Below are positions 2,069-55,204 of a DNA stretch of 64,000 bases, piece after piece. The position numbers and the translations under genes were made by a program. The number at the start of each line of letters is the position of its first letter. The stretch's first letter is position 1. Under the pieces are notes generated by a model. That model was not told the DNA's origin. It was given only the letters and a program-made list of their open reading frames with translations, and did no database searches. The stretch is from assembly GCA_964609455.1 (NCBI GenBank), contig CAZSRD010000005.1:4878-68877 (forward strand), given 5' to 3'. Source of the DNA: an uncultured Methanosarcinales archaeon. Its GTDB lineage: Archaea > Nanobdellota > Nanobdellia > Woesearchaeales > JACPBV01.

Positions 2069-5000
2069 ATGGTTGGGGGGTTAAAGATTAAGAAAATATT
2101 AAGATTACTTTCTATTTTTGTAGTCATCTTCATAGTTTCTTTTTCTCTTGTATATGCATTAGGGGACACTAGGTCAAACTTTTTAAATATGGTACCCTTA
2201 CGTGAAAAACGCGAAATTAATACTTATGAACTTATAAAAAATTTTAACACATTGTATATATTAGATGAATATAACTCATTGCAAGCCCCTAGTGGATATT
2301 TATGGGTGGTTGATTCTCATTTAGGTAATAATAAGTTACTTAAAATAAACCCCTTAGATGGTAGTATAGAGGCCAGTTTTGATATAATTAGTAGCCCAAG
2401 TTTAATAGGTCTCGCTTTTGATGGAAATAATCTTTGGATATCTGATTCTAATAATAATAAGATATATAAATATTCTAGGGCGGGTTTATTACTAAATACA
2501 TATGATTGTCCGTCCCCTTGTCGTTATCCTTATGGCCTTACATGGGATGGAAATAACTTATGGGTTGCAGCAGAAACTTCTACTTATAGGGATTATAAAT
2601 TATTTAAACTATCTTCTGATTTAGGGAGTATACTTACTTCTATTGATATTCCTGTAGAATATCCTTGGGATCCTGAAGGACTAACTTGGGATGGTTCCTA
2701 CCTTTTATATACTGAAGACTCATTTAATGGTTATCTAAGAAAAGTTACGCCGTTAGGACAGATATATTCTAGGATTTATAGTGAATATGATATTTTTGGC
2801 CTTGCTTTTGATGGGCAAAACCCTTGGGTTTCTTTATGGGGTTCAAGTTCTCAACCAGCTTATATTGGGAAACTAGGTGCAGATTATAGGTTAAGTTTTG
2901 CTAAAGAATACCCGGGGATTCTACCTAGAGATTCTGCTTGGGAATCTACGTCGGTTTGTGATTGTGGCTCTTGGTCAAACCAAGGTTGCGGTCAGGGAGG
3001 TTGTGCAGCAGACAAAATGTATCAGACAAGAACATGCAATCCATCTGGTTGTGATACACAATCTCAATGTGTTAGTGATGCAAGTTGTAATCCGCAATGC
3101 TCAGGTACAGACACTTCATGCGGCACTTACCCTAGTTGTACAAACTGCAACTCCAATGATGGCTGCAATGGTGATTCCTATAGGAATTATTATTGTGTAA
3201 GTAATGCTGCTGGATGTAGCTATACATCTGATAACTGTAATGACTGCTCATGCACATGCGGCGGGTATAACACAGCAGAAACAACTGCAAATGGAAATTG
3301 CGGCGATGGAAAAGATAATGACTGTGATGGAGATACTGATGGAGCTGATTCTGGTTGCGCAACATGCTCAGGTACAGACACTTCATGCGGCACTTACCCT
3401 AACTGTTTGAATTGTAATTCTTATGATACCTGCTCAGGAAATTATTATTACAACTATTACTGTTCCGGAACTTCCTGTACTTATTCTTCTGACAGCTGCA
3501 CTGACTGCTCATGCACATGCGGCGGGTATAACACAGCAGAAACAACTGCAAATGGAAATTGCGGCGATGGAAAAGATAATGACTGTGATGGAGATACTGA
3601 TGGAGCTGATTCTGGTTGCCAATCATGTGAATGCAGTTCTGAAGTATGTTGTGATGGCTGCCATTATAAACCTTCAGGAAGCCAGCCAACAGGATATACT
3701 GATGATTCAAATGGGTTCTGTGATGGCTCTAATTCTCCAACAGGAACAAATTATGTAAAGACAAGGGATTATTACTGCGATGGGGTTGACGCAGGTTTAC
3801 ATTATTTAGATACTATAGTTGATACATGCAGTACTTGTGAATACTGCACAAATAATGACTTAACATGCAATTATTATACTTCTTCTACTGTTTGCGGTTC
3901 GCAGGATTGCGACTACCTTGATACAATATGCAGGGACTATATTGATATGAATATGTATTGCAGCGGAAGCAGCAGTACCTGTAGTGCTTTTTGTTCTTCT
4001 TATACAAATGCTCCTGCCGGAACTTCATGTGGGGCTAGTCAGGAATGCGATGGTAATGGAAATTGCATTCAGGTAAGCCATTGCAATAATGGTGTAAAAG
4101 ACTATGATGAGTTAGGTATAGACTGCGGCGGAAGCTGTTCAAATCACGATTGTTGTGAGAACAATTATGAAGATTCTAATCTAGGTGAAGATGGTGTTGA
4201 TTGTGGTGGAGTTTGCCATTATAGTTGTGTTGTCCCAGTTATTTTGGTTCATGGTTATCTTAGCACCTCTGCTTCTTTATCAAATTTTGAGAATTGGTTG
4301 AGGGCAGATGGCTTCGCAGTTTATAATGTTGATTATGCACAGGGTTCTGCTTTTGCTAATGGGGATATTACTGATTACGCAAAAGTCCTATGTAAAGAAA
4401 TAGACCGAATTAGGAGAGTTGAAAAAGTAAATTATGTGGATATAGTTGCTCACTCAATGGGGGGCCTGGTAGCGAGGGAGTGCTTATTGCATTATGAAAC
4501 ACAAAAGGGAGTAAGGAAACTAATAATGTTGGGAACACCAAATCATGGCACTAATGCATTCGAGTCAAGTAAATATTTCACAACCTATATTGTCTCAATA
4601 TTTGATATAGGCCGTGGCTATTTGCAAGATGTTGCTTTATTGAATAGTATATTGGGGGTTGCAAGAAATCAAATGAGAGTATGCTCCCCATTTTTGAATC
4701 ACCTTAATTTTGGCGGAGATGTTGATAAAAGCAAGTGTGAATATCCTGAGAAGAGCACAGATATTTTAGTTAATGAGGTGGAGTATGATAATTTGGCAGG
4801 AGTTGTTGGATTGAGTTCCTTATTTCATCTTAAAAATAATGATATGTTAGTTAGTGTTGTTAGTGCTTATCTGGATGGAGCTTATAGAAATAATCCTGCG
4901 TATGGGTATGACCACTTTAAACTTGTTAAAGAAACAGAAACTTACCAGTGGGTGAAATCTGTCCTGGATGAAGAAGTAGTTGGTTCTTTAAGTAAGCTAA

Positions 5001-19727: not shown

Positions 19728-19878
19728 ATAATCTGGAGTTACAGAGAACCTTTTAAATCTTTGTTCTAGATACTATTTAATGCACGATTTATACAATCTT
19801 CTACTGTTAAGAACCAAAACCCGTTACATTTATAAATAAGCCTTATTTTCTACTATATTACCTATGATTAATGAACCT

Positions 19879-19895
19879 TATATATACTATATATG
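19879..19895 (+). promoter_or_regulatory. TATA-like element (ttatatatactatatat) upstream of the L7Ae operon; an AGGTGA Shine-Dalgarno sits at 19930-19935
   Basis: AT-rich box about 50 bp upstream of the start codon. Several genes here carry GGTG-type ribosome-binding sites. Confidence 0.3.
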
Positions 19896-19942
19896 GGGCG
19901 AATGAGGAAGTGTTCTAATATTCCTCAAATATAAACTAAAAG

Positions 19943-20287
19943 GTGAATAACATGGCAGATGAACCAACAGATAAAATATATGAAGCAATTGAAACAGCTA
20001 AATCTACAGGAAAATTAAGGAGAGGAACAAACGAAGTAACAAAAGCAATAGAGAAGGGAACGGCAAAATTAGTTATTGTTGCTAAAGATGTAAATCCTCC
20101 TGAAATAACAATGCATATTCCATTATTATGCAAAGAAAAAGGAATAACCTGTGTTGAGGTGCCTTCTAAGGAAGAGTTAGGAGCTGCTTCAGGCATAGAA
20201 AAACCTACTGCTTCAGTGGCTATTGTCCAGGAAGGAGAGGCAAAGGGCTTAATAAAAGAAGTAACTGCAAGCGCAAAGAAAGAATAA
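19943..20287 (+). CDS. rpl7ae: ribosomal protein L7Ae
   Basis: KLRRGTNEVTKAIEKGTAKLVIVAKDVNPPEI is the L7Ae/L30e kink-turn binding fold signature. Confidence 0.9.
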   Translation: MNNMADEPTDKIYEAIETAKSTGKLRRGTNEVTKAIEKGTAKLVIVAKDVNPPEITMHIPLLCKEKGITCVEVPSKEELGAASGIEKPTASVAIVQEGEAKGLIKEVTASAKKE

Positions 20288-20288
20288 A

Positions 20289-20621
20289 ATGGCACAGAAA
20301 AAGATGGCTGGAAAAGAGGAATCAGTATCAGAAGACGGTAAAGTAGAGAATAAAAGGAGAGTAAAAGAGGAAGAAGTAAAGAAAGGCTCTGTTCATTTTA
20401 CACAAGCAATCCCTGCCAGGGTTGAGGAGGTTATTGGGAGGACAGGGACAAGAGGAGAAGCAATACAGGTGAGATGCAAGATTTTAGATGGAAGAGACCA
20501 AAATAAGGTTTTGAGAAGAAATGTCAGGGGGCCTATACAGGTTGGCGATGTTCTTATGCTAAGGGAAACTGAAATCGAGGCAAGGGCTTTAAGCAAAGCA
20601 GGCAGAGGCTCAGGGAGTTAG
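20289..20621 (+). CDS. rps28e: ribosomal protein S28e with a Lys/Glu-rich N-terminal extension
   Basis: ARVEEVIGRTGTRGEAIQVRCKILDGRDQNKVLRRNVRGPIQVGDVLMLRETE. Confidence 0.85.
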   Translation: MAQKKMAGKEESVSEDGKVENKRRVKEEEVKKGSVHFTQAIPARVEEVIGRTGTRGEAIQVRCKILDGRDQNKVLRRNVRGPIQVGDVLMLRETEIEARALSKAGRGSGS

Positions 20622-20625
20622 AAAA

Positions 20626-20796
20626 ATGGTAAAATGCACATTTTGCGGCAATATACTTGACCCAGGAACTGGGAAGATGTATGTTCAGAAGGATGCTAAG
20701 ATATTATATTTTTGCACTATGAAATGCGAAAAGAATATGTTAAAGTTAAAAAGAAAACCATATAATATAAAGTGGACTAAATCTTATAAAAAATAA
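20626..20796 (+). CDS. rpl24e: ribosomal protein L24e (56 aa; below the ORF-track size cutoff)
   Basis: Translation MVKCTFCGNILDPGTGKMYVQKDAKILYFCTMKCEKNMLKLKRKPYNIKWTKSYKK carries the C4 zinc ribbon typical of L24e. Confidence 0.8.
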   Translation: MVKCTFCGNILDPGTGKMYVQKDAKILYFCTMKCEKNMLKLKRKPYNIKWTKSYKK

Positions 20797-20797
20797 A

Positions 20798-21307
20798 ATG
20801 GCAGTCGAACAATCTTTGGTGCTAATAAAACCTGATGGATTAGTCAAATCTTTGACGGGAGATATCTTGTCAAAGATGTCTGAAATAGATCTTAAGATAG
20901 TTGGAGCTAAGATAGTCCAGGTTACCAGAGAATTAGCAGAAGAACATTACCAGCACCTTAGAGAAGAAAAGTTTTTTGATGAATTGATAAAATATATCAT
21001 GGGGGAGTACCATACAAAGAGGGTTTTGGCTTTGGTTTATCATGGTGAAGATGCTATCAAAAAGGTAAGGAAGATTGTAGGCGAGACAAACCCAGAGAAA
21101 GCAGAGCCTACATCCATAAGGGGAAAATATGGGAGGATTACATCTGCAGGAGTTTTTGAAAATGTTGTCCATGCTTCTGAAAATACAAAGGAATCAGAGA
21201 GAGAAATCAAATTGTGGTTCAGGCCAGATGAGCTGGTTTATACCCTTTATCCTACTGAATTAAGAAACGTACAAATAGATAAAGCCTTCTGGAAGGGGAA
21301 GAAATAG
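20798..21307 (+). CDS. ndk: nucleoside diphosphate kinase (divergent)
   Basis: LVLIKPDGLVKSLTGDILSKM at the N-terminus and a catalytic His context NVVHASEN. Confidence 0.8.
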   Translation: MAVEQSLVLIKPDGLVKSLTGDILSKMSEIDLKIVGAKIVQVTRELAEEHYQHLREEKFFDELIKYIMGEYHTKRVLALVYHGEDAIKKVRKIVGETNPEKAEPTSIRGKYGRITSAGVFENVVHASENTKESEREIKLWFRPDELVYTLYPTELRNVQIDKAFWKGKK

Positions 21308-27192: not shown

Positions 27193-28860
27193 TTAGATTA
27201 GTCTTGCCGTTAAAGGAGTGTTTGCGCAGTAGACACTGAAAGTGCTATCTTCCCTGATAAATATAGCATTACAACGGGCATCTCTCGCTTCAGCAAATTT
27301 TTCTCTTGCGTTATCAGTAGCTAGTTGTATCCCTAATTTTGTACGATCCTCATCTAAATCATGGCGTGTTTCTGGGCAGAACCATCTTCCTAAGTCGCCA
27401 CCATAAGACAAGCCTTTTCCATAACTGGCATAATTTAATGCATCTCCATTATACCTGTAAATTCTTGCTTCTGATGTTGCTGTTTTTATCATAAATATAT
27501 GGTTGTCCTCAACTACCCAGACTATGTCGTGAGGTTGCTTGGACATTGTTGTTCTGTATTGAAGGGCTTTTTGCTTTAACCTTTTCATCTCTTCAGCTTT
27601 GGTGTTACAAACACTTGCTTCAATCAGATGTTCTCCTGGGTCTTCCATTGGTAGTACAGATTCTAAATCTGGCCTTTCCCAAACGGATATAGCATCAAAT
27701 GCTGCTCTTTTCAATAGGGCAGTTGCAAATTTTCTTCCGTCTTCATGAAGCCTTTTTATAGCTTCTAGCGTAAACGGCTGCCTTAAATATAATTCTGGAT
27801 GCTTTGAATTTTGGTTTATGTTAATGAGCCTAAGGATATGATCTCCTTCCCATCCGGCGGGCCTTCTCTCTTGAGAGTAAATAGTGAATGCTTCAATTGT
27901 TCTGCTCAACTCTTCTTCCCAGAAGATACTTAAATCTCTGCCAGGCAATATGCTTGTTCCGTCTCTGTATAACCTTGCTGCCAGATTCTTTGTTTCGGAT
28001 TTTAGTTCATACCAATCCCTGCTTTGAACTAAAGACCTAACTTCTTTCCACCACATTTGTGCTGGGTTAAAGGTTGGCCATTCAATTCCCATAAATCTTT
28101 CTTTTGCAAGTGCATCTGCACTCACTACATATGCCATAAATTCCCTTGCATCTGCTCTTCCTTTACCTTTTAGATATTCTTCCCATACAATATTTACGTT
28201 TGCTTTGTAGTTAGAGGTTATATTTTCTTTTTCATCTCCTAATAAAATCGCTAATTTTACTAAATCAATGAATTCATCTTTTTTATCGTCCTTGAGATTA
28301 CCCCTAAAAAGATTTTCATAAAAAAGAGAGCAAAATCTTTTTCTATGCTCTTTTAACATTTCCATTAGTTTGGCGCCATATTGTTCTCTTAATTTTTCGG
28401 CAAAGTCTGGCTGCGCAATTGCTTTTTTTGCCAAAGCATGCCAAACTACTCGATACCATCTTCTCGGTTCTTGGTTATAAATCGATTCATTGTTATGTAT
28501 GTGTACATCACGGTGGTCGAGCAAAGCATACAGTTGTTCAGGAGCATAATATAAAGCAACTGCTTTCTCACATAATCTTTGGGTTCTTGCTACGTCAAGC
28601 TTATTTTCTGTTGGTACATATACTGTTTCTTTTTCAGCTATCTGTTTTACTGCTTCTTCCATCAAAGTTATCTCTGCATCTGACATCTCCTCAAGCCCGC
28701 CTGTGACAGGGTCTTTCAGCCAATCAGTCATTCTACGCTGCCATAATATGTGTACATAAGGATCTTCTGTTCTAGGGAAATCTCCAACTGAATCAAGAAA
28801 CATCTGTGTATCTCTGCTTTTTACCGCTGCTTCAAGCCCCCCAAAGTTTACTTCGGTCAT
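27193..28860 (-). CDS. large hypothetical protein (555 aa) with no recognisable domain
   Basis: Long ORF. Its composition is richer in G+C (noticeably more CGN and GCN codons) than the neighbouring core genes. Confidence 0.4.
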   Translation of the reverse strand: MTEVNFGGLEAAVKSRDTQMFLDSVGDFPRTEDPYVHILWQRRMTDWLKDPVTGGLEEMSDAEITLMEEAVKQIAEKETVYVPTENKLDVARTQRLCEKAVALYYAPEQLYALLDHRDVHIHNNESIYNQEPRRWYRVVWHALAKKAIAQPDFAEKLREQYGAKLMEMLKEHRKRFCSLFYENLFRGNLKDDKKDEFIDLVKLAILLGDEKENITSNYKANVNIVWEEYLKGKGRADAREFMAYVVSADALAKERFMGIEWPTFNPAQMWWKEVRSLVQSRDWYELKSETKNLAARLYRDGTSILPGRDLSIFWEEELSRTIEAFTIYSQERRPAGWEGDHILRLININQNSKHPELYLRQPFTLEAIKRLHEDGRKFATALLKRAAFDAISVWERPDLESVLPMEDPGEHLIEASVCNTKAEEMKRLKQKALQYRTTMSKQPHDIVWVVEDNHIFMIKTATSEARIYRYNGDALNYASYGKGLSYGGDLGRWFCPETRHDLDEDRTKLGIQLATDNAREKFAEARDARCNAIFIREDSTFSVYCANTPLTARLI

Positions 28861-28940
28861 TAATAGAGAAGAATGAATTTTGATTTAAAAAGTTATCTGA
28901 AAAAACTAAAAAAACCAACAATTTTATATATAAAACGATT

Positions 28941-28966
28941 AATCCCCTTTATTAGCCCAGCTTAGG
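28941..28966 (+). repeat. degenerate partial copy of the tRNA-Tyr 5' end (aatcccctttattagcccagcttag versus ctatccccgcttag)
   Basis: CCCAGCTTAG versus CCCCGCTTAG at the genuine tRNA start, 880 bp downstream. The pair flanks the LAGLIDADG ORF. Confidence 0.45.
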
Positions 28967-29018
28967 ATTTTGGAATGTCCTTTTTTAATTTTTGTATTTT
29001 CCATAAAGTTAGAGTAAT

Positions 29019-29816
29019 ATGAAAAACAAAAAAATTTCAAAAAAAGACCTTATTCAAGAAGTACATAATCTGGAACTTACATTACATAGGAGGCCAGTTA
29101 AAAGGGATAACGCAACATTATACAAAAATTCTAGAGAGTTTTTTGGTTCTTGGAATAAGATGTTATTTTCAGCAGGATACTCTGTTCAATTTTTACAAAA
29201 AATAGGTTCATATACATTTAATCATAATTTTGCATATTTTTTAGGATTATTAATCACTGATGGGCATATTGCTTATGATAAAAGACGAGAAAACTACAAA
29301 GTGGCCATCTATACTAGTTATCCAGACGAAAGAGATATGTTAGTAAAACTAATCAGGCATATATTTGAGTATAATGCACGTATTAGCAAGAAGAAGGCAG
29401 GGTATAATGTGAAATTTAATTTTGAAGTTAGGATAAATTCTAAAAAGCTTGCTGAGGATTTAATTGATGATTATTGTATTCCTTCAGGTAAAAAATCTTT
29501 AAACGTTCGTTTACCAAATTTCTTATTTAATACACAAATAAGGTGTAAGGAATCTTTTTTAAGGGGGGTTATTGATGGTGATGGTTCTATTACAAAGAGG
29601 GGAATAAAAATTGTATCTGGTTCTACACTTTTCCTTAAAGATTTGAAACATTTTTTATTCACTTTAAAAATTCACACTGGTAGTATTATAAAGGAGCACG
29701 ATAGAAATACTTATTCAATTAGGATTAATAAGAAAGAAGATTGGATTAAAATTAAACGAATTTACTCTTTTGGATATTTCTATAAGCGAAAGAGAGAAAG
29801 TATCAATAAGATTTAA
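29019..29816 (+). CDS. free-standing double-motif LAGLIDADG homing-endonuclease-like protein
   Basis: Two LAGLIDADG motifs: FAYFLGLLITDGHIAYD and FLRGVIDGDGSITK. Confidence 0.75.
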   Translation: MKNKKISKKDLIQEVHNLELTLHRRPVKRDNATLYKNSREFFGSWNKMLFSAGYSVQFLQKIGSYTFNHNFAYFLGLLITDGHIAYDKRRENYKVAIYTSYPDERDMLVKLIRHIFEYNARISKKKAGYNVKFNFEVRINSKKLAEDLIDDYCIPSGKKSLNVRLPNFLFNTQIRCKESFLRGVIDGDGSITKRGIKIVSGSTLFLKDLKHFLFTLKIHTGSIIKEHDRNTYSIRINKKEDWIKIKRIYSFGYFYKRKRESINKI

Positions 29817-29844
29817 ATAGGAGAAGCTAACCTCCCTGTACTAT

Positions 29845-29999
29845 CCCCGCTTAGTTTAGACTAACATTTTTTAGTGTTGGGAACAATGGCTAGAACGGTC
29901 GGCTGTAGATAAGATCACTTACTGACTTTGCATTTTGCATAGAATGAAAGTAAGTCAGCTGGTACCGACAAATCCCTGGTTCAAGTCCGGGAGCGGGGA
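29845..29999 (+). tRNA. tRNA-Tyr(GTA) with a canonical 55-nt anticodon intron and a probable second intron of about 27 nt in the D-arm
   Basis: Acceptor CCCCGCT/AGCGGGG. Anticodon arm GTCGG-CTGTAG[intron]A-CCGAC. T-arm CCTGG-TTCAAGT-CCGGG. The D region is 46 nt instead of 19. Mature length would be 73 nt. Confidence 0.7.
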
Positions 30000-30452: not shown

Positions 30453-30541
30453 GCCCTGGTGGTGTAGTGGCCTATCATGAAGCCCTGTCGATGCTATAGA
30501 AGCAGAACGGCTTCGACCCGAGTTCGAATCTCGGCCGGGGC
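30453..30541 (+). tRNA. tRNA-Asp(GTC) with an intron of about 17 nt in the anticodon loop
   Basis: GCCCTGGTGGTGTAGTGGCCTATCATG-AAGCC-CTGTC-G[ATGCTATAGAAGCAGAA]C-GGCTT. T-arm CCGAG-TTCGAAT-CTCGG. Acceptor 3' strand CCGGGGC. Closely matches archaeal tRNA-Asp. Confidence 0.8.
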
Positions 30542-30544
30542 GTA

Positions 30545-30657
30545 GGGCCCGTAGCTCAGCCTGGTTAGAGCGCCTCACTTTTAATGAGGTGGCCGCGCGT
30601 TCGAACAGCAGGTCAGCCAAAGGTTGATCACGACGCTCTGAAAATCGCGTCGGGCCC
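30545..30657 (+). tRNA. tRNA-Lys(TTT) with a non-canonical intron of about 39 nt in the T-loop
   Basis: GGGCCCG-TA-GCTC-AGCCTGGTTA-GAGC-G-CCTCA-CTTTTAA-TGAGG-TGGCC-GCGCG-TTCGAA[39 nt]T-CGCGT-CGGGCCC-A. Starts 3 nt after tRNA-Asp. Confidence 0.7.
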
Positions 30658-54102: not shown

Positions 54103-54175
54103 ATCACAATATCTTCTCTTCTTCTTTATCTTTAGAGTTCTCCATAATTTTTTATGATTAAAAAGAATAAAAAAT

Positions 54176-54294
54176 GCGAGGAGGAGGATTCGAACCCCCG
54201 TAAGCACTAAGCTAATAGGTGTCTTACAAAAGTGACCTAAGCTTGGACATTTCTTGAGAAAATCTATCCCGTTTGGCCACTCCGGCATCCTCGC
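54176..54294 (-). tRNA. intron-containing class II-type tRNA (long variable arm, discriminator A; Leu-like), intron about 36 nt, anticodon not resolved by eye
   Basis: Minus strand GCGAGGA-TG-CCG-GAGTGGCCAAA-CGG-G-ATAGA...CCTAT-(AGC-TTAGT-GCT)TAC-GGGGG-TTCGAAT-CCTCC-TCCTCGC. Acceptor and T-arm pair perfectly. 119 nt in total. Confidence 0.65.
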
Positions 54295-54946
54295 ATTTGA
54301 AACGCTTATTGATTCTCTCAAGCTTTTCTGTGTTTTGTAATGGTAAAAGCTTTAAAAATTTATCTATTTCTCCTTTGTAAATCCTAATCCCATAAAACTC
54401 TTTATTGTATCTCTTGTTAGTCCATCTTTCTTTTAGATGTTTAATACCAAATTCGTTAAGGAGTTCTATTGTTCCTTTATGAAGAATTTGGCTTGCAGTT
54501 GTAAACCCTAAAGAATTGCCCCTGAATCCACCATCTGTATCAAAATATCCTGCTAGAAAGCAACTTTTAATTTCTTTTGAAGAGTTTTTTATTTTATTTG
54601 GAACAAAAACTATGGAACTTTTAGCTCCTTTTGGAATTTCCATTTCTTCGGACAAAAACTTAAATAACCTTTTATTCCTAACTTGAAAATATAATCTTTC
54701 CATCCTATTTCCATAAATTTTTGGAGATTGGGGTTGACTTTTTGTATAAATTAAGGATTTAATTACTTTACTTAAGTAGACAAGGTATTCTTTGTCTGAT
54801 ATATCTATTCTTATTTGATAATCAGTAGAATGATCAGTTTTAGATTTTGATGAGTTTACTATATGCCCATCACCAATTATAACTCCTACAAGATAAGCGG
54901 TTTTGGGAGTAAGCTTAATCTTTGATTCAATTTTTTTATTATTCAT
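54224..54946 (-). CDS. free-standing double-motif LAGLIDADG homing-endonuclease-like protein; its 3' end runs into the tRNA
   Basis: YLVGVIIGDGHIVNS and FLAGYFDTDGGFRG. Confidence 0.7.
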   Translation of the reverse strand: MNNKKIESKIKLTPKTAYLVGVIIGDGHIVNSSKSKTDHSTDYQIRIDISDKEYLVYLSKVIKSLIYTKSQPQSPKIYGNRMERLYFQVRNKRLFKFLSEEMEIPKGAKSSIVFVPNKIKNSSKEIKSCFLAGYFDTDGGFRGNSLGFTTASQILHKGTIELLNEFGIKHLKERWTNKRYNKEFYGIRIYKGEIDKFLKLLPLQNTEKLERINKRFKCEDAGVAKRDRFSQEMSKLRSLL

Positions 54947-55087
54947 TTAAATCACTAAATTTTACTTAGTTGAGACTATTTAAATGATTTTTAGTTTTTT
55001 TAGCAAAAATCATAATTTAATAGTCGAAACATTATTTAAAGTGATTTAAATATAAAAGAATTGGAGTTTAAATATCTTGCTTAATTT

Positions 55088-55107
55088 GACCACTCCGGCA
55101 TCTCCGC
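55088..55107 (-). repeat. degenerate partial copy of the 54176-54294 tRNA 5' end (GCGGAGATGCCGGAGTGGTC versus GCGAGGATGCCGGAGTGGCC)
   Basis: 17 of 20 positions identical. Located on the far side of the LAGLIDADG ORF from the intact tRNA. Confidence 0.5.
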
Positions 55108-55204
55108 ACAATAGGCTAAGAAAATTGGCCATTATAAAAATCTTTCTACTTCTATGTTGGAAATTAATAAAATTTAAATATGACCTGTTGAGCAAAGAAT
55201 TAAG

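Follow-up and report, generated by a model that had tools for sequence, protein, structure and literature searches.

Free-standing LAGLIDADG endonuclease genes within the 5' part of two intron-containing archaeal tRNA genes: probable collaborative homing with tRNA mini-introns

Collaborative homing has been described in cyanophage S-PM2, where the gene for the free-standing endonuclease F-CphI adjoins psbA, a gene with an intron (Zeng, Bonocora and Shub 2009, via PMC6083498). The intron is proposed to split the target and thereby protect the carrier, and the enzyme to lend mobility to the intron. Here, two loci are analyzed in a 64,000-nucleotide stretch of archaeal DNA (contig CAZSRD010000005.1, positions 4,878 to 68,877; the whole stretch is referred to as the window). 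One comprises a LAGLIDADG homing endonuclease gene (HEG1) and tRNA-Tyr(GUA), and the other a second such gene (HEG2) and tRNA-Leu(UAG). It is probable that each is a tRNA gene invaded by a ~0.9-kb cassette with a free-standing LAGLIDADG gene, which moves together with a target-splitting mini-intron by collaborative homing. As with F-CphI and psbA, a free-standing endonuclease gene adjoins a gene with an ORF-less intron (ORF, open reading frame), the intron being at tRNA position 15/16 for HEG1 and 30/31 for HEG2. The differences are that the host DNA is an archaeal chromosome rather than a phage, the enzymes are of the LAGLIDADG rather than the Endo VII type, the intron measures 21-37 nt, is of the bulge-helix-bulge (BHB) type and is spliced by protein, where the phage intron is a group I ribozyme, and the target is a tRNA rather than a protein-coding gene. 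In addition, the endonuclease gene is here inserted within the 5' part of its target and is accompanied by a replacement 5' end and a left-over stub, and cleavage and immunity are putative.

Free-standing endonuclease genes of fungal mitochondria (Allomyces atp6, Ophiostoma rps3) reportedly enter protein genes and carry a duplicate of the end that they displace. The present cassettes resemble them in bringing a replacement part while the displaced original stays as a pseudo-fragment; unlike those organellar cases, which concern 3' coding ends, the part replaced here is an archaeal tRNA 5' end, with promoter and leader at the Tyr locus. The archaeal enzyme I-DmoI is encoded inside the intron that it mobilizes, and that intron lies in 23S rRNA. 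HEG1 shares with I-DmoI the monomeric double-motif form, I-DmoI being its closest solved fold, and the BHB splicing system is common to both. By contrast with I-DmoI, HEG1 and HEG2 lie outside the mini-intron, upstream of the tRNA, and HEG1 has an extra N-terminal homing-endonuclease-associated repeat (HEAR) domain. An endonuclease gene among tRNA genes is also known from SegB of the phage T4 tRNA gene cluster (PMC2330249; in general, PMC6083498), and in intron-less homing the repair of a break carries an endonuclease gene and flanking markers into genomes without the gene (PMC6083498). SegB is, however, a GIY-YIG enzyme whose gene is intergenic, and it is not known to cause a gene-end duplication, leave a promoter stub or have an associated intron. 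In Caldiarchaeum, a tRNA gene and a fragment of it are set apart by a 1.8-kb insertion that carries a recombinase gene (PMC4033280). The order of tRNA fragment, insert and intact tRNA gene is the same as here, but the present cassettes are single-gene elements without a recombinase gene, and the fragment consists of a 5' end and a promoter. A survey of archaeal group I introns placed 39 of 39 in rRNA genes (PMC6125680), and full-text literature searches turned up no account of a LAGLIDADG gene within an archaeal tRNA gene or next to one. Each component has precedents: homing endonucleases that are free-standing, collaborative homing, BHB introns, and the tRNA fragments that mobile elements leave. 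What is not known is their combination on an archaeal chromosome, where a tRNA gene is the target, the cassette brings a replacement 5' end and leaves a promoter stub, and the partner is a mini-intron spliced by protein.

At each locus, a copy of the first nucleotides of a tRNA gene (the stub), with a TATA-like box before it, is followed by a LAGLIDADG ORF and then by a tRNA gene on the same strand (Table 1). The cassette is positioned after nucleotide 10 of tRNA-Tyr and after nucleotide 23 of tRNA-Leu. HEG1 and HEG2 are each the only gene of at least 50 amino acids in their ~0.9-kb cassettes, and neither adjoins an integrase or transposase gene. A TATA-like box upstream of the stub is likewise present in other occupied loci, i.e. 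those with an endonuclease gene, and HEG1 orthologues have a further TATA-like box ~25 nt before the ATG, in the stretch equivalent to 28966-29018. At the other end of the Tyr cassette, the box TTTAAATA is placed in the same way as the ATATTTATAAAC-type box of empty tRNA-Tyr genes; in the orthologues, the HEG1 stop codon typically falls within a ATATTTAAA-type box ~30 nt before tRNA +1.

Table 1. Positions of the features of the Tyr and Leu loci within the window (related loci are given L numbers; L083 and L167 are alleles without an endonuclease gene)
Feature	Position	Strand	Remarks
Resident TATA-like box TTTATATATA of original tRNA-Tyr	28923..28932	+	~24 nt before stub; aligns with native promoter of L083
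Resident 5' leader of original tRNA-Tyr	28933..28955	+	Orthologous to L083 leader
Stub CCCAGCTTAG, nt 1-10 of displaced resident tRNA-Tyr	28956..28965	+	9/10 match to working gene
Cassette start, HEG1 5' region	28966..29018	+	Similarity to empty allele stops at 28965
HEG1	29019..29816	+	265 aa; monomeric double-motif LAGLIDADG endonuclease with N-terminal HEAR domain (Pfam, orthologues, AlphaFold2)
Cassette-borne TATA-like box TTTAAATA	29812..29819	+	Overlaps HEG1 stop codon (29814-29816); 26-33 nt before tRNA +1
Functional tRNA-Tyr(GUA)	29845..29999	+	Exons 29845-29859, 29887-29908, 29964-29999
BHB intron, 27 nt, tRNA position 15/16 (D-loop)	29860..29886	+	5 nt downstream of stub/cassette boundary position; absent from L083
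Intron, 55 nt, at or near canonical 37/38 (anticodon loop)	29909..29963	+	Hand parse and ARAGORN on spliced form
Functional tRNA-Leu(UAG)	54175..54294	-	Exons 54294-54264, 54242-54236, 54220-54175; introns 54263-54243 (30/31), 54235-54221 (37/38)
HEG2	54224..54946	-	240 aa; double-motif LAGLIDADG endonuclease (Pfam LAGLIDADG_3)
Stub GCGGAGATGCCGGAGTGGTCAAA, nt 1-23 of displaced resident tRNA-Leu	55085..55107	-	20/23 match to working gene; 0 expected by chance
Resident TATA-like box TTTTTATAA of original tRNA-Leu	55132..55140	-	Aligns with native promoter of empty allele L167

The acceptor stem of the window tRNA-Tyr (CCCCGCT/AGCGGGG) is perfectly paired. Neither ARAGORN nor Rfam called a tRNA in the raw sequence 29845-29999, and ARAGORN returned tRNA-Tyr(gta) when the 27-nt and 55-nt introns were removed. 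The spliced 5' part equals that of the L083 tRNA-Tyr, which is without the 27-nt intron and carries an intron at the same place as the 55-nt one. The 15/16 intron displays a textbook BHB motif, with a central helix GUUU/GAAC, bulges AG|A and AA|U and an 8-bp inner helix. A strict motif, with two 3-nt bulges on either side of a 4-bp helix at the splice sites, was not located at the registers expected for the 37/38 intron of the window tRNA-Tyr or for the tRNA-Leu introns. Exon boundaries in tRNA-Leu were set by comparison with the intron-less allele L167, from which the spliced window gene differs by two single-base differences only. This gene (54294-54175) scored 36.8 bits with the Rfam tRNA model and was called as tRNA-Leu(tag) by ARAGORN in its spliced form.

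The HEG2 ORF (54946-54224) passes through exon 1, intron 1 and exon 2 of tRNA-Leu and has its stop in intron 2. No separate, well-placed TATA box precedes this tRNA (window 54224-54300, minus strand), and the HEG2 mRNA and tRNA-Leu may therefore be one transcript that is processed by RNase P. A motif, CACTGGACAT, repeats 20-60 nt upstream of the HEG2 orthologues in L161, L163 (three copies) and L166 and stands ~10 nt before their TATA box; it resembles the tRNA-Leu D-loop and may be a diverged copy of it that moves along with the element.

The nature of the upstream copies was assessed by alignment with empty alleles. The 10-mer CCCAGCTTAG is not significant alone, given that 1.3 such matches are expected in the window, and the case for the Tyr stub therefore rests on its orthology with L083. 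The TATA box, leader and stub of the window align at ~78% with the native tRNA-Tyr promoter, leader and nucleotides 1-10 of L083, and the similarity ends exactly after G10. Similarly, the Leu stub region aligns at ~85% with the native promoter, leader and nucleotides 1-23 of L167 and ends after nucleotide 23. Because the stub regions align with the promoters of empty alleles, the upstream copy is the start of the resident gene itself, displaced by the cassette: the resident promoter and leader and the first 10 (Tyr) or 23 (Leu) nucleotides. It is accordingly the cassette that owns the promoter, leader and first nucleotides of the working gene at the Tyr locus, and at least the first 23 nucleotides at the Leu locus. 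Mismatches between stub and 3' acceptor strand (A4·G69 for Tyr, A5·C68 for Leu, up to four in orthologues) mean that the stubs cannot serve as exons.

Nor are the stubs plain decay products; some of them carry the sequence of alleles that function elsewhere. For the Leu stub, 23/23 nt agree with the functional allele found in L173 and L175. In L094, the stub and leader resemble the empty gene of L105 and the working tRNA has a different, self-consistent acceptor stem, and so in this lineage the whole tRNA came with the cassette. Stubs are present in 17 of 25 occupied Tyr loci (8 are without), and in the 11 loci where a stub was recognized 43-45 nt before the ATG, 19 of the 20 differences between stub and tRNA fall at acceptor positions 4-7.

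These results bear on a sequence-only reading of the window, in which a small mobile element carrying an endonuclease gene was proposed to target the 5' end of tRNA genes and to leave a decaying target-site duplication. The double-motif endonuclease ORF, the multi-intron tRNA-Tyr (called after splicing, not on the raw sequence) and the partial tRNA copy upstream were all borne out, as was the recurrence of the layout with another tRNA and another LAGLIDADG protein, HEG2 being 27% identical to HEG1 in protein sequence. A mobile element in the 5' part of tRNA genes is likewise upheld by the occupied and empty alleles, the tRNA linkage and the two families described below. The decaying target-site duplication had to be given up, since the copy is a displaced 5' end with TATA box and leader, its tRNA portion is 10 nt at one locus and 23 nt at the other, and the differences lie mostly at acceptor-stem positions that vary between functional alleles. 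Two features escaped that reading altogether, namely the replacement 5' end (plus promoter at the Tyr locus) and the mini-intron just downstream of the junction.

The HEG1 protein was matched in Pfam by LAGLIDADG_3 (4.8e-13), Hom_end and the N-terminal homing-endonuclease-associated repeat. Its two LAGLIDADG motifs are LLITDGH and VIDGDGS; their aspartates, D81 and D188, do not vary among 27 aligned orthologues, and many further residues are likewise invariant. About 58 full-length orthologues were found with identities of 37-72%, and those with a taxon label are DPANN metagenome-assembled genomes (MAGs). The AlphaFold2 model (pLDDT 93.2) predicts the pseudo-dimeric alpha-beta-beta-alpha-beta-beta-alpha LAGLIDADG fold, and its top structural matches are I-DmoI and the endonuclease domains of archaeal inteins (probability 1.0), with a TM score of 0.76-0.78 to I-DmoI (normalized to I-DmoI) and a root mean square deviation of about 3.1 Å. 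The related folds in this comparison also include maturases and the WhiA regulator. With invariant aspartates and a confident I-DmoI-like model, the enzyme looks functional. Degenerate copies occur alongside the intact genes: 2 of the 28 orthologues, those of L023 and L027, are pseudogenes with disrupted ORFs, which fits what is expected of a homing cycle. Among viral contigs (IMG/VR), only distant LAGLIDADG relatives of 25-38% identity were found.

Linkage to a single tRNA species is strict. When HEG1 loci were scanned with one genome per species, the resulting 28 orthologous loci all had a tRNA-Tyr(GUA) that either begins 20-55 nt beyond the ORF or overlaps with the ORF end, and the same linkage is seen in L029, in L183 and in the metagenome loci L094 and L151. 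The four HEG2 orthologues that were looked up all run into tRNA-Leu(UAG). No exception to this association occurred among the orthologues examined. In the same scan, seven other DPANN LAGLIDADG genes (L030, L032, L043, L044, L054, L069 and L076) had no adjacent tRNA by ARAGORN or by our own scan, and the tRNA link is so far specific to the HEG1 and HEG2 families.

Empty sites were sought in the 80 metagenomic relatives nearest by RpoB'' (73-86% identical to that of the window). In at least 15 distinct related lineages, tRNA-Tyr has a normal promoter and no endonuclease gene, and only L094 and L151 in this set are occupied. The most informative comparison is between L183, an occupied locus with a HEG1 that is 72% identical to that of the window, and L083, which is empty. 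The two are collinear, with 81-90% nucleotide identity on both sides, and differ only by the ~880-bp cassette and a 28-nt intron at position 15/16. For tRNA-Leu, four lineages without HEG2 were reached via the neighboring LSM and L37e genes. Presence and absence at one homologous site in related genomes is therefore observed for both tRNAs. Since L167 lies on the same contig as L183, one genome is HEG1-positive and HEG2-negative, and occupancy by HEG1 and HEG2 is independent. In L168, L170 and L171, the syntenic gap for tRNA-Leu (after a 232-aa gene) is without a tRNA-Leu, and an IS240-type transposase gene lies ~1 kb away.

The cassettes co-occur with a mini-intron just downstream of the junction, at a distance of 5 nt for tRNA-Tyr (15/16) and 8 nt for tRNA-Leu (30/31). 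Of 31 occupied tRNA-Tyr lineages, 20 have a 15/16 intron, against 0 of 16 empty ones. Among the empty alleles, L147 alone carries a D-loop intron, though not at 15/16; when L147 is nevertheless counted as intron-positive, Fisher's test for the coupling of intron and HEG1 gives p = 1.4e-4, phylogenetic non-independence being ignored. A strict BHB motif at 15/16 was found in 15 occupied loci (the window and 14 further), with a central helix that pairs the 5' strand of the D-stem with intron GAGC or GAAC. The 30/31 intron is present in all five HEG2-positive loci, and two of the four HEG2-negative lineages are intron-less. At both loci, therefore, a free-standing endonuclease gene lies beside an intron-containing target gene and co-occurs with its intron.

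Further irregularities were observed in tRNA-Tyr genes of this clade, which hold as many as three introns and escape the standard tRNA finders. Extra T-loop introns of 40-90 nt occur in L002, L016 and L111. In L105 (~4700-4830) and L133 (~1620-1760), a complete tRNA-Tyr with its T-run precedes a hairpin-rich insert of 60-75 nt, after which the last 16-18 nt of the tRNA occur again, with a T-run of their own; this layout mirrors the 5' stub, at the T-loop, the site of the T-loop introns in L111, L016 and L002. In L153 (~4510-4660), a leader and tRNA-Tyr nucleotides 1-20 (differing at nucleotides 4-5) are followed by a GC-rich insert of ~105 nt and then by leader and intact tRNA-Tyr, so that the 5' end is duplicated without an endonuclease gene. 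The L153 insert and the L016 T-loop intron share the motif GGAGCTGAC.TCAGCTCGCA, and the insert may be a small mobile RNA element or a cassette remnant.

A scheme for homing can be put forward on this basis. In its first step, the enzyme would cut tRNA genes that have neither cassette nor intron, at or near the site of the mini-intron, with the putative cut probably in the D-arm of tRNA-Tyr or the D/anticodon-stem region of tRNA-Leu. The occupied allele would then be the template for double-strand-break repair, with the stub as upstream homology arm and the tRNA body as downstream arm; with these arms, the endonuclease gene, the new 5' end and the mini-intron would be copied together, sometimes with the whole tRNA gene. 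The Tyr cassette supplies as its replacement 5' end a TATA box over the stop codon, a new leader and fresh nucleotides 1-10, and in the Leu cassette the ORF runs straight into a fresh copy of nucleotides 1-23. With this replacement, the cassette keeps the essential tRNA gene working, and the displaced promoter, leader and first 10 or 23 nt stay upstream as a non-functional stub. In the restored gene, the intron would split the recognition site, and the carrier genome would thereby be protected.

Several points weigh against this proposal. The cleavage target site and the immunity mechanism are putative, and all sequence data come from MAG or metagenome assemblies. Eleven occupied tRNA-Tyr lineages are without a 15/16 intron, L016-L019 among them. 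The D-stem departs from the consensus in seven of the eleven, and in two the endonuclease gene is dead, but at least 5 of the 11 look fully cleavable, with a consensus D-arm and an intact ORF, and the 15/16 intron is therefore not the sole protection. The single pair L183/L083 cannot tell insertion from loss, and the stub statistics are conditional on a stub being recognized, which was not so at 8 of 25 loci. HEG1 and RpoB'' identities correlate weakly (Spearman 0.48, with a few discordant pairs), such that vertical and horizontal history are not separated, and the HEG1 ORF is intact at the same syntenic place where RpoB'' is only 48-80% identical. Given these syntenic intact ORFs and the partial tracking of the host by HEG1, long vertical persistence is possible, perhaps with some benefit to the host.

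The same observations lend some weight to an alternative that we regard as unlikely but the least improbable of those considered, namely that the LAGLIDADG protein has been domesticated, is vertically inherited and immobile, and serves the host as a regulator or a helper in tRNA maturation, the empty alleles being losses. It would account for intact orthologues at the same Tyr-Asp-Lys-rpoH-rpoB'' locus across deep divergence and for the partly correlated divergence of endonuclease and host, and the many invariant residues and the maturases and WhiA among the related folds are in keeping with it. Both catalytic aspartates are, however, kept in all 27 aligned orthologues, and two orthologues are pseudogenes. 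Simple loss would leave the 15/16 intron behind, and yet none of the 16 empty tRNA-Tyr alleles has one. Nor does domestication readily explain why close relatives can be occupied or empty, with sharply defined boundaries and a promoter stub that is redundant, why some stubs correspond to other functional alleles, or why two unrelated families have the same architecture at two different tRNAs.

The remaining explanations turn on what the upstream copy is. Archaeal mobile elements commonly enter tRNA genes and leave tRNA fragments, as in the 1.8-kb Caldiarchaeum case (PMC4033280), and the repeat could on that model be a target-site or attachment-site duplication made by a transposase or integrase, with the LAGLIDADG gene as cargo. 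No fixed-length duplication with such an enzyme gene was found: the insert of ~0.9 kb has the endonuclease ORF as its sole gene of at least 50 aa, and the duplicated part includes promoter and leader together with a tRNA portion of 10 nt in one case and 23 nt in the other. The association with one tRNA moreover holds across endonucleases that are only 35-72% identical, and this explanation is considered very improbable. Equally improbable is the possibility of a giant endonuclease-encoding intron or a split tRNA, with the upstream copy as true 5' exon spliced across the ORF. Archaeal rRNA introns do encode LAGLIDADG enzymes, and the stub has a promoter at the right distance. Its acceptor mismatches, and the complete tRNA downstream, which at the Tyr locus has its own TATA box, rule out the stub as a real exon; a search of both loci with Rfam at E <= 5 gave no credible group I or II intron, the sole match to an intron family scoring 16.9 bits against a gathering score of 140. 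Chance, i.e. a random match upstream of a tRNA beside which the ORF lies by accident, can be excluded. The Tyr 10-mer has no significance alone, but for the 23-mer of the Leu locus no match is expected, both stubs align with the promoters of empty sites, and the layout recurs in more than 30 independent assemblies.

The window itself is AT-rich (35.9% G+C) and archaeal, and its nearest relatives are MAGs labeled Woesearchaeota, Nanoarchaeota or Pacearchaeota, which places it within DPANN. Near the Tyr locus lie rpoH and a split rpoB, with tRNA-Asp (20-nt intron) and tRNA-Lys 3 nt apart just upstream of rpoH (30453-30619, plus strand), and the gene order Tyr-Asp-Lys-rpoH-rpoB'' is kept in many relatives. 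On the other side, an ORF of 555 aa (27193-28860, minus strand) abuts the tRNA-Tyr stub region; tblastn at E <= 1e-5 against the fetched relative loci gave no homologue for it. Immediately before tRNA-Tyr, L083 (1-1420) and L183 (1562-2237) have the genes for L7Ae and S28e. Given that in the window this block (19844-21207) is inverted and 8 kb from tRNA-Tyr, a rearrangement breakpoint adjoins the Tyr cassette.

The two loci hint at how the many oddly placed introns of archaeal tRNA genes may have spread. In a review of the subject, intron "transposition" is described for Thermoproteales, but no enzyme is named; the same review cites a proposal that the disruption of tRNA genes hinders mobile-element integration (PMC4033280). 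The wider idea is that, by cutting at the intron site and joint copying, free-standing LAGLIDADG genes spread non-canonical BHB introns among the tRNA genes of archaea and at times replace whole tRNA genes; it has in our estimation an even chance of being correct. The system lends itself to testing in that it combines four parts: a nuclease gene, a defined empty target, a co-traveling mini-intron, and natural occupied and empty alleles. It further indicates how a selfish gene that has no intron of its own can enter an essential single-copy RNA gene: it supplies a spare 5' end. As ARAGORN and Rfam miss such genes, DPANN genomes may wrongly appear to be without tRNA-Tyr or tRNA-Leu, and the HEG1 and HEG2 enzymes are candidates for new long-site nucleases. 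If the wider idea holds, it would be the first mechanism to tie a homing endonuclease to the origin of multi-intron archaeal tRNA genes and would provide a concrete case of a tRNA intron that acts as protection against a nuclease.

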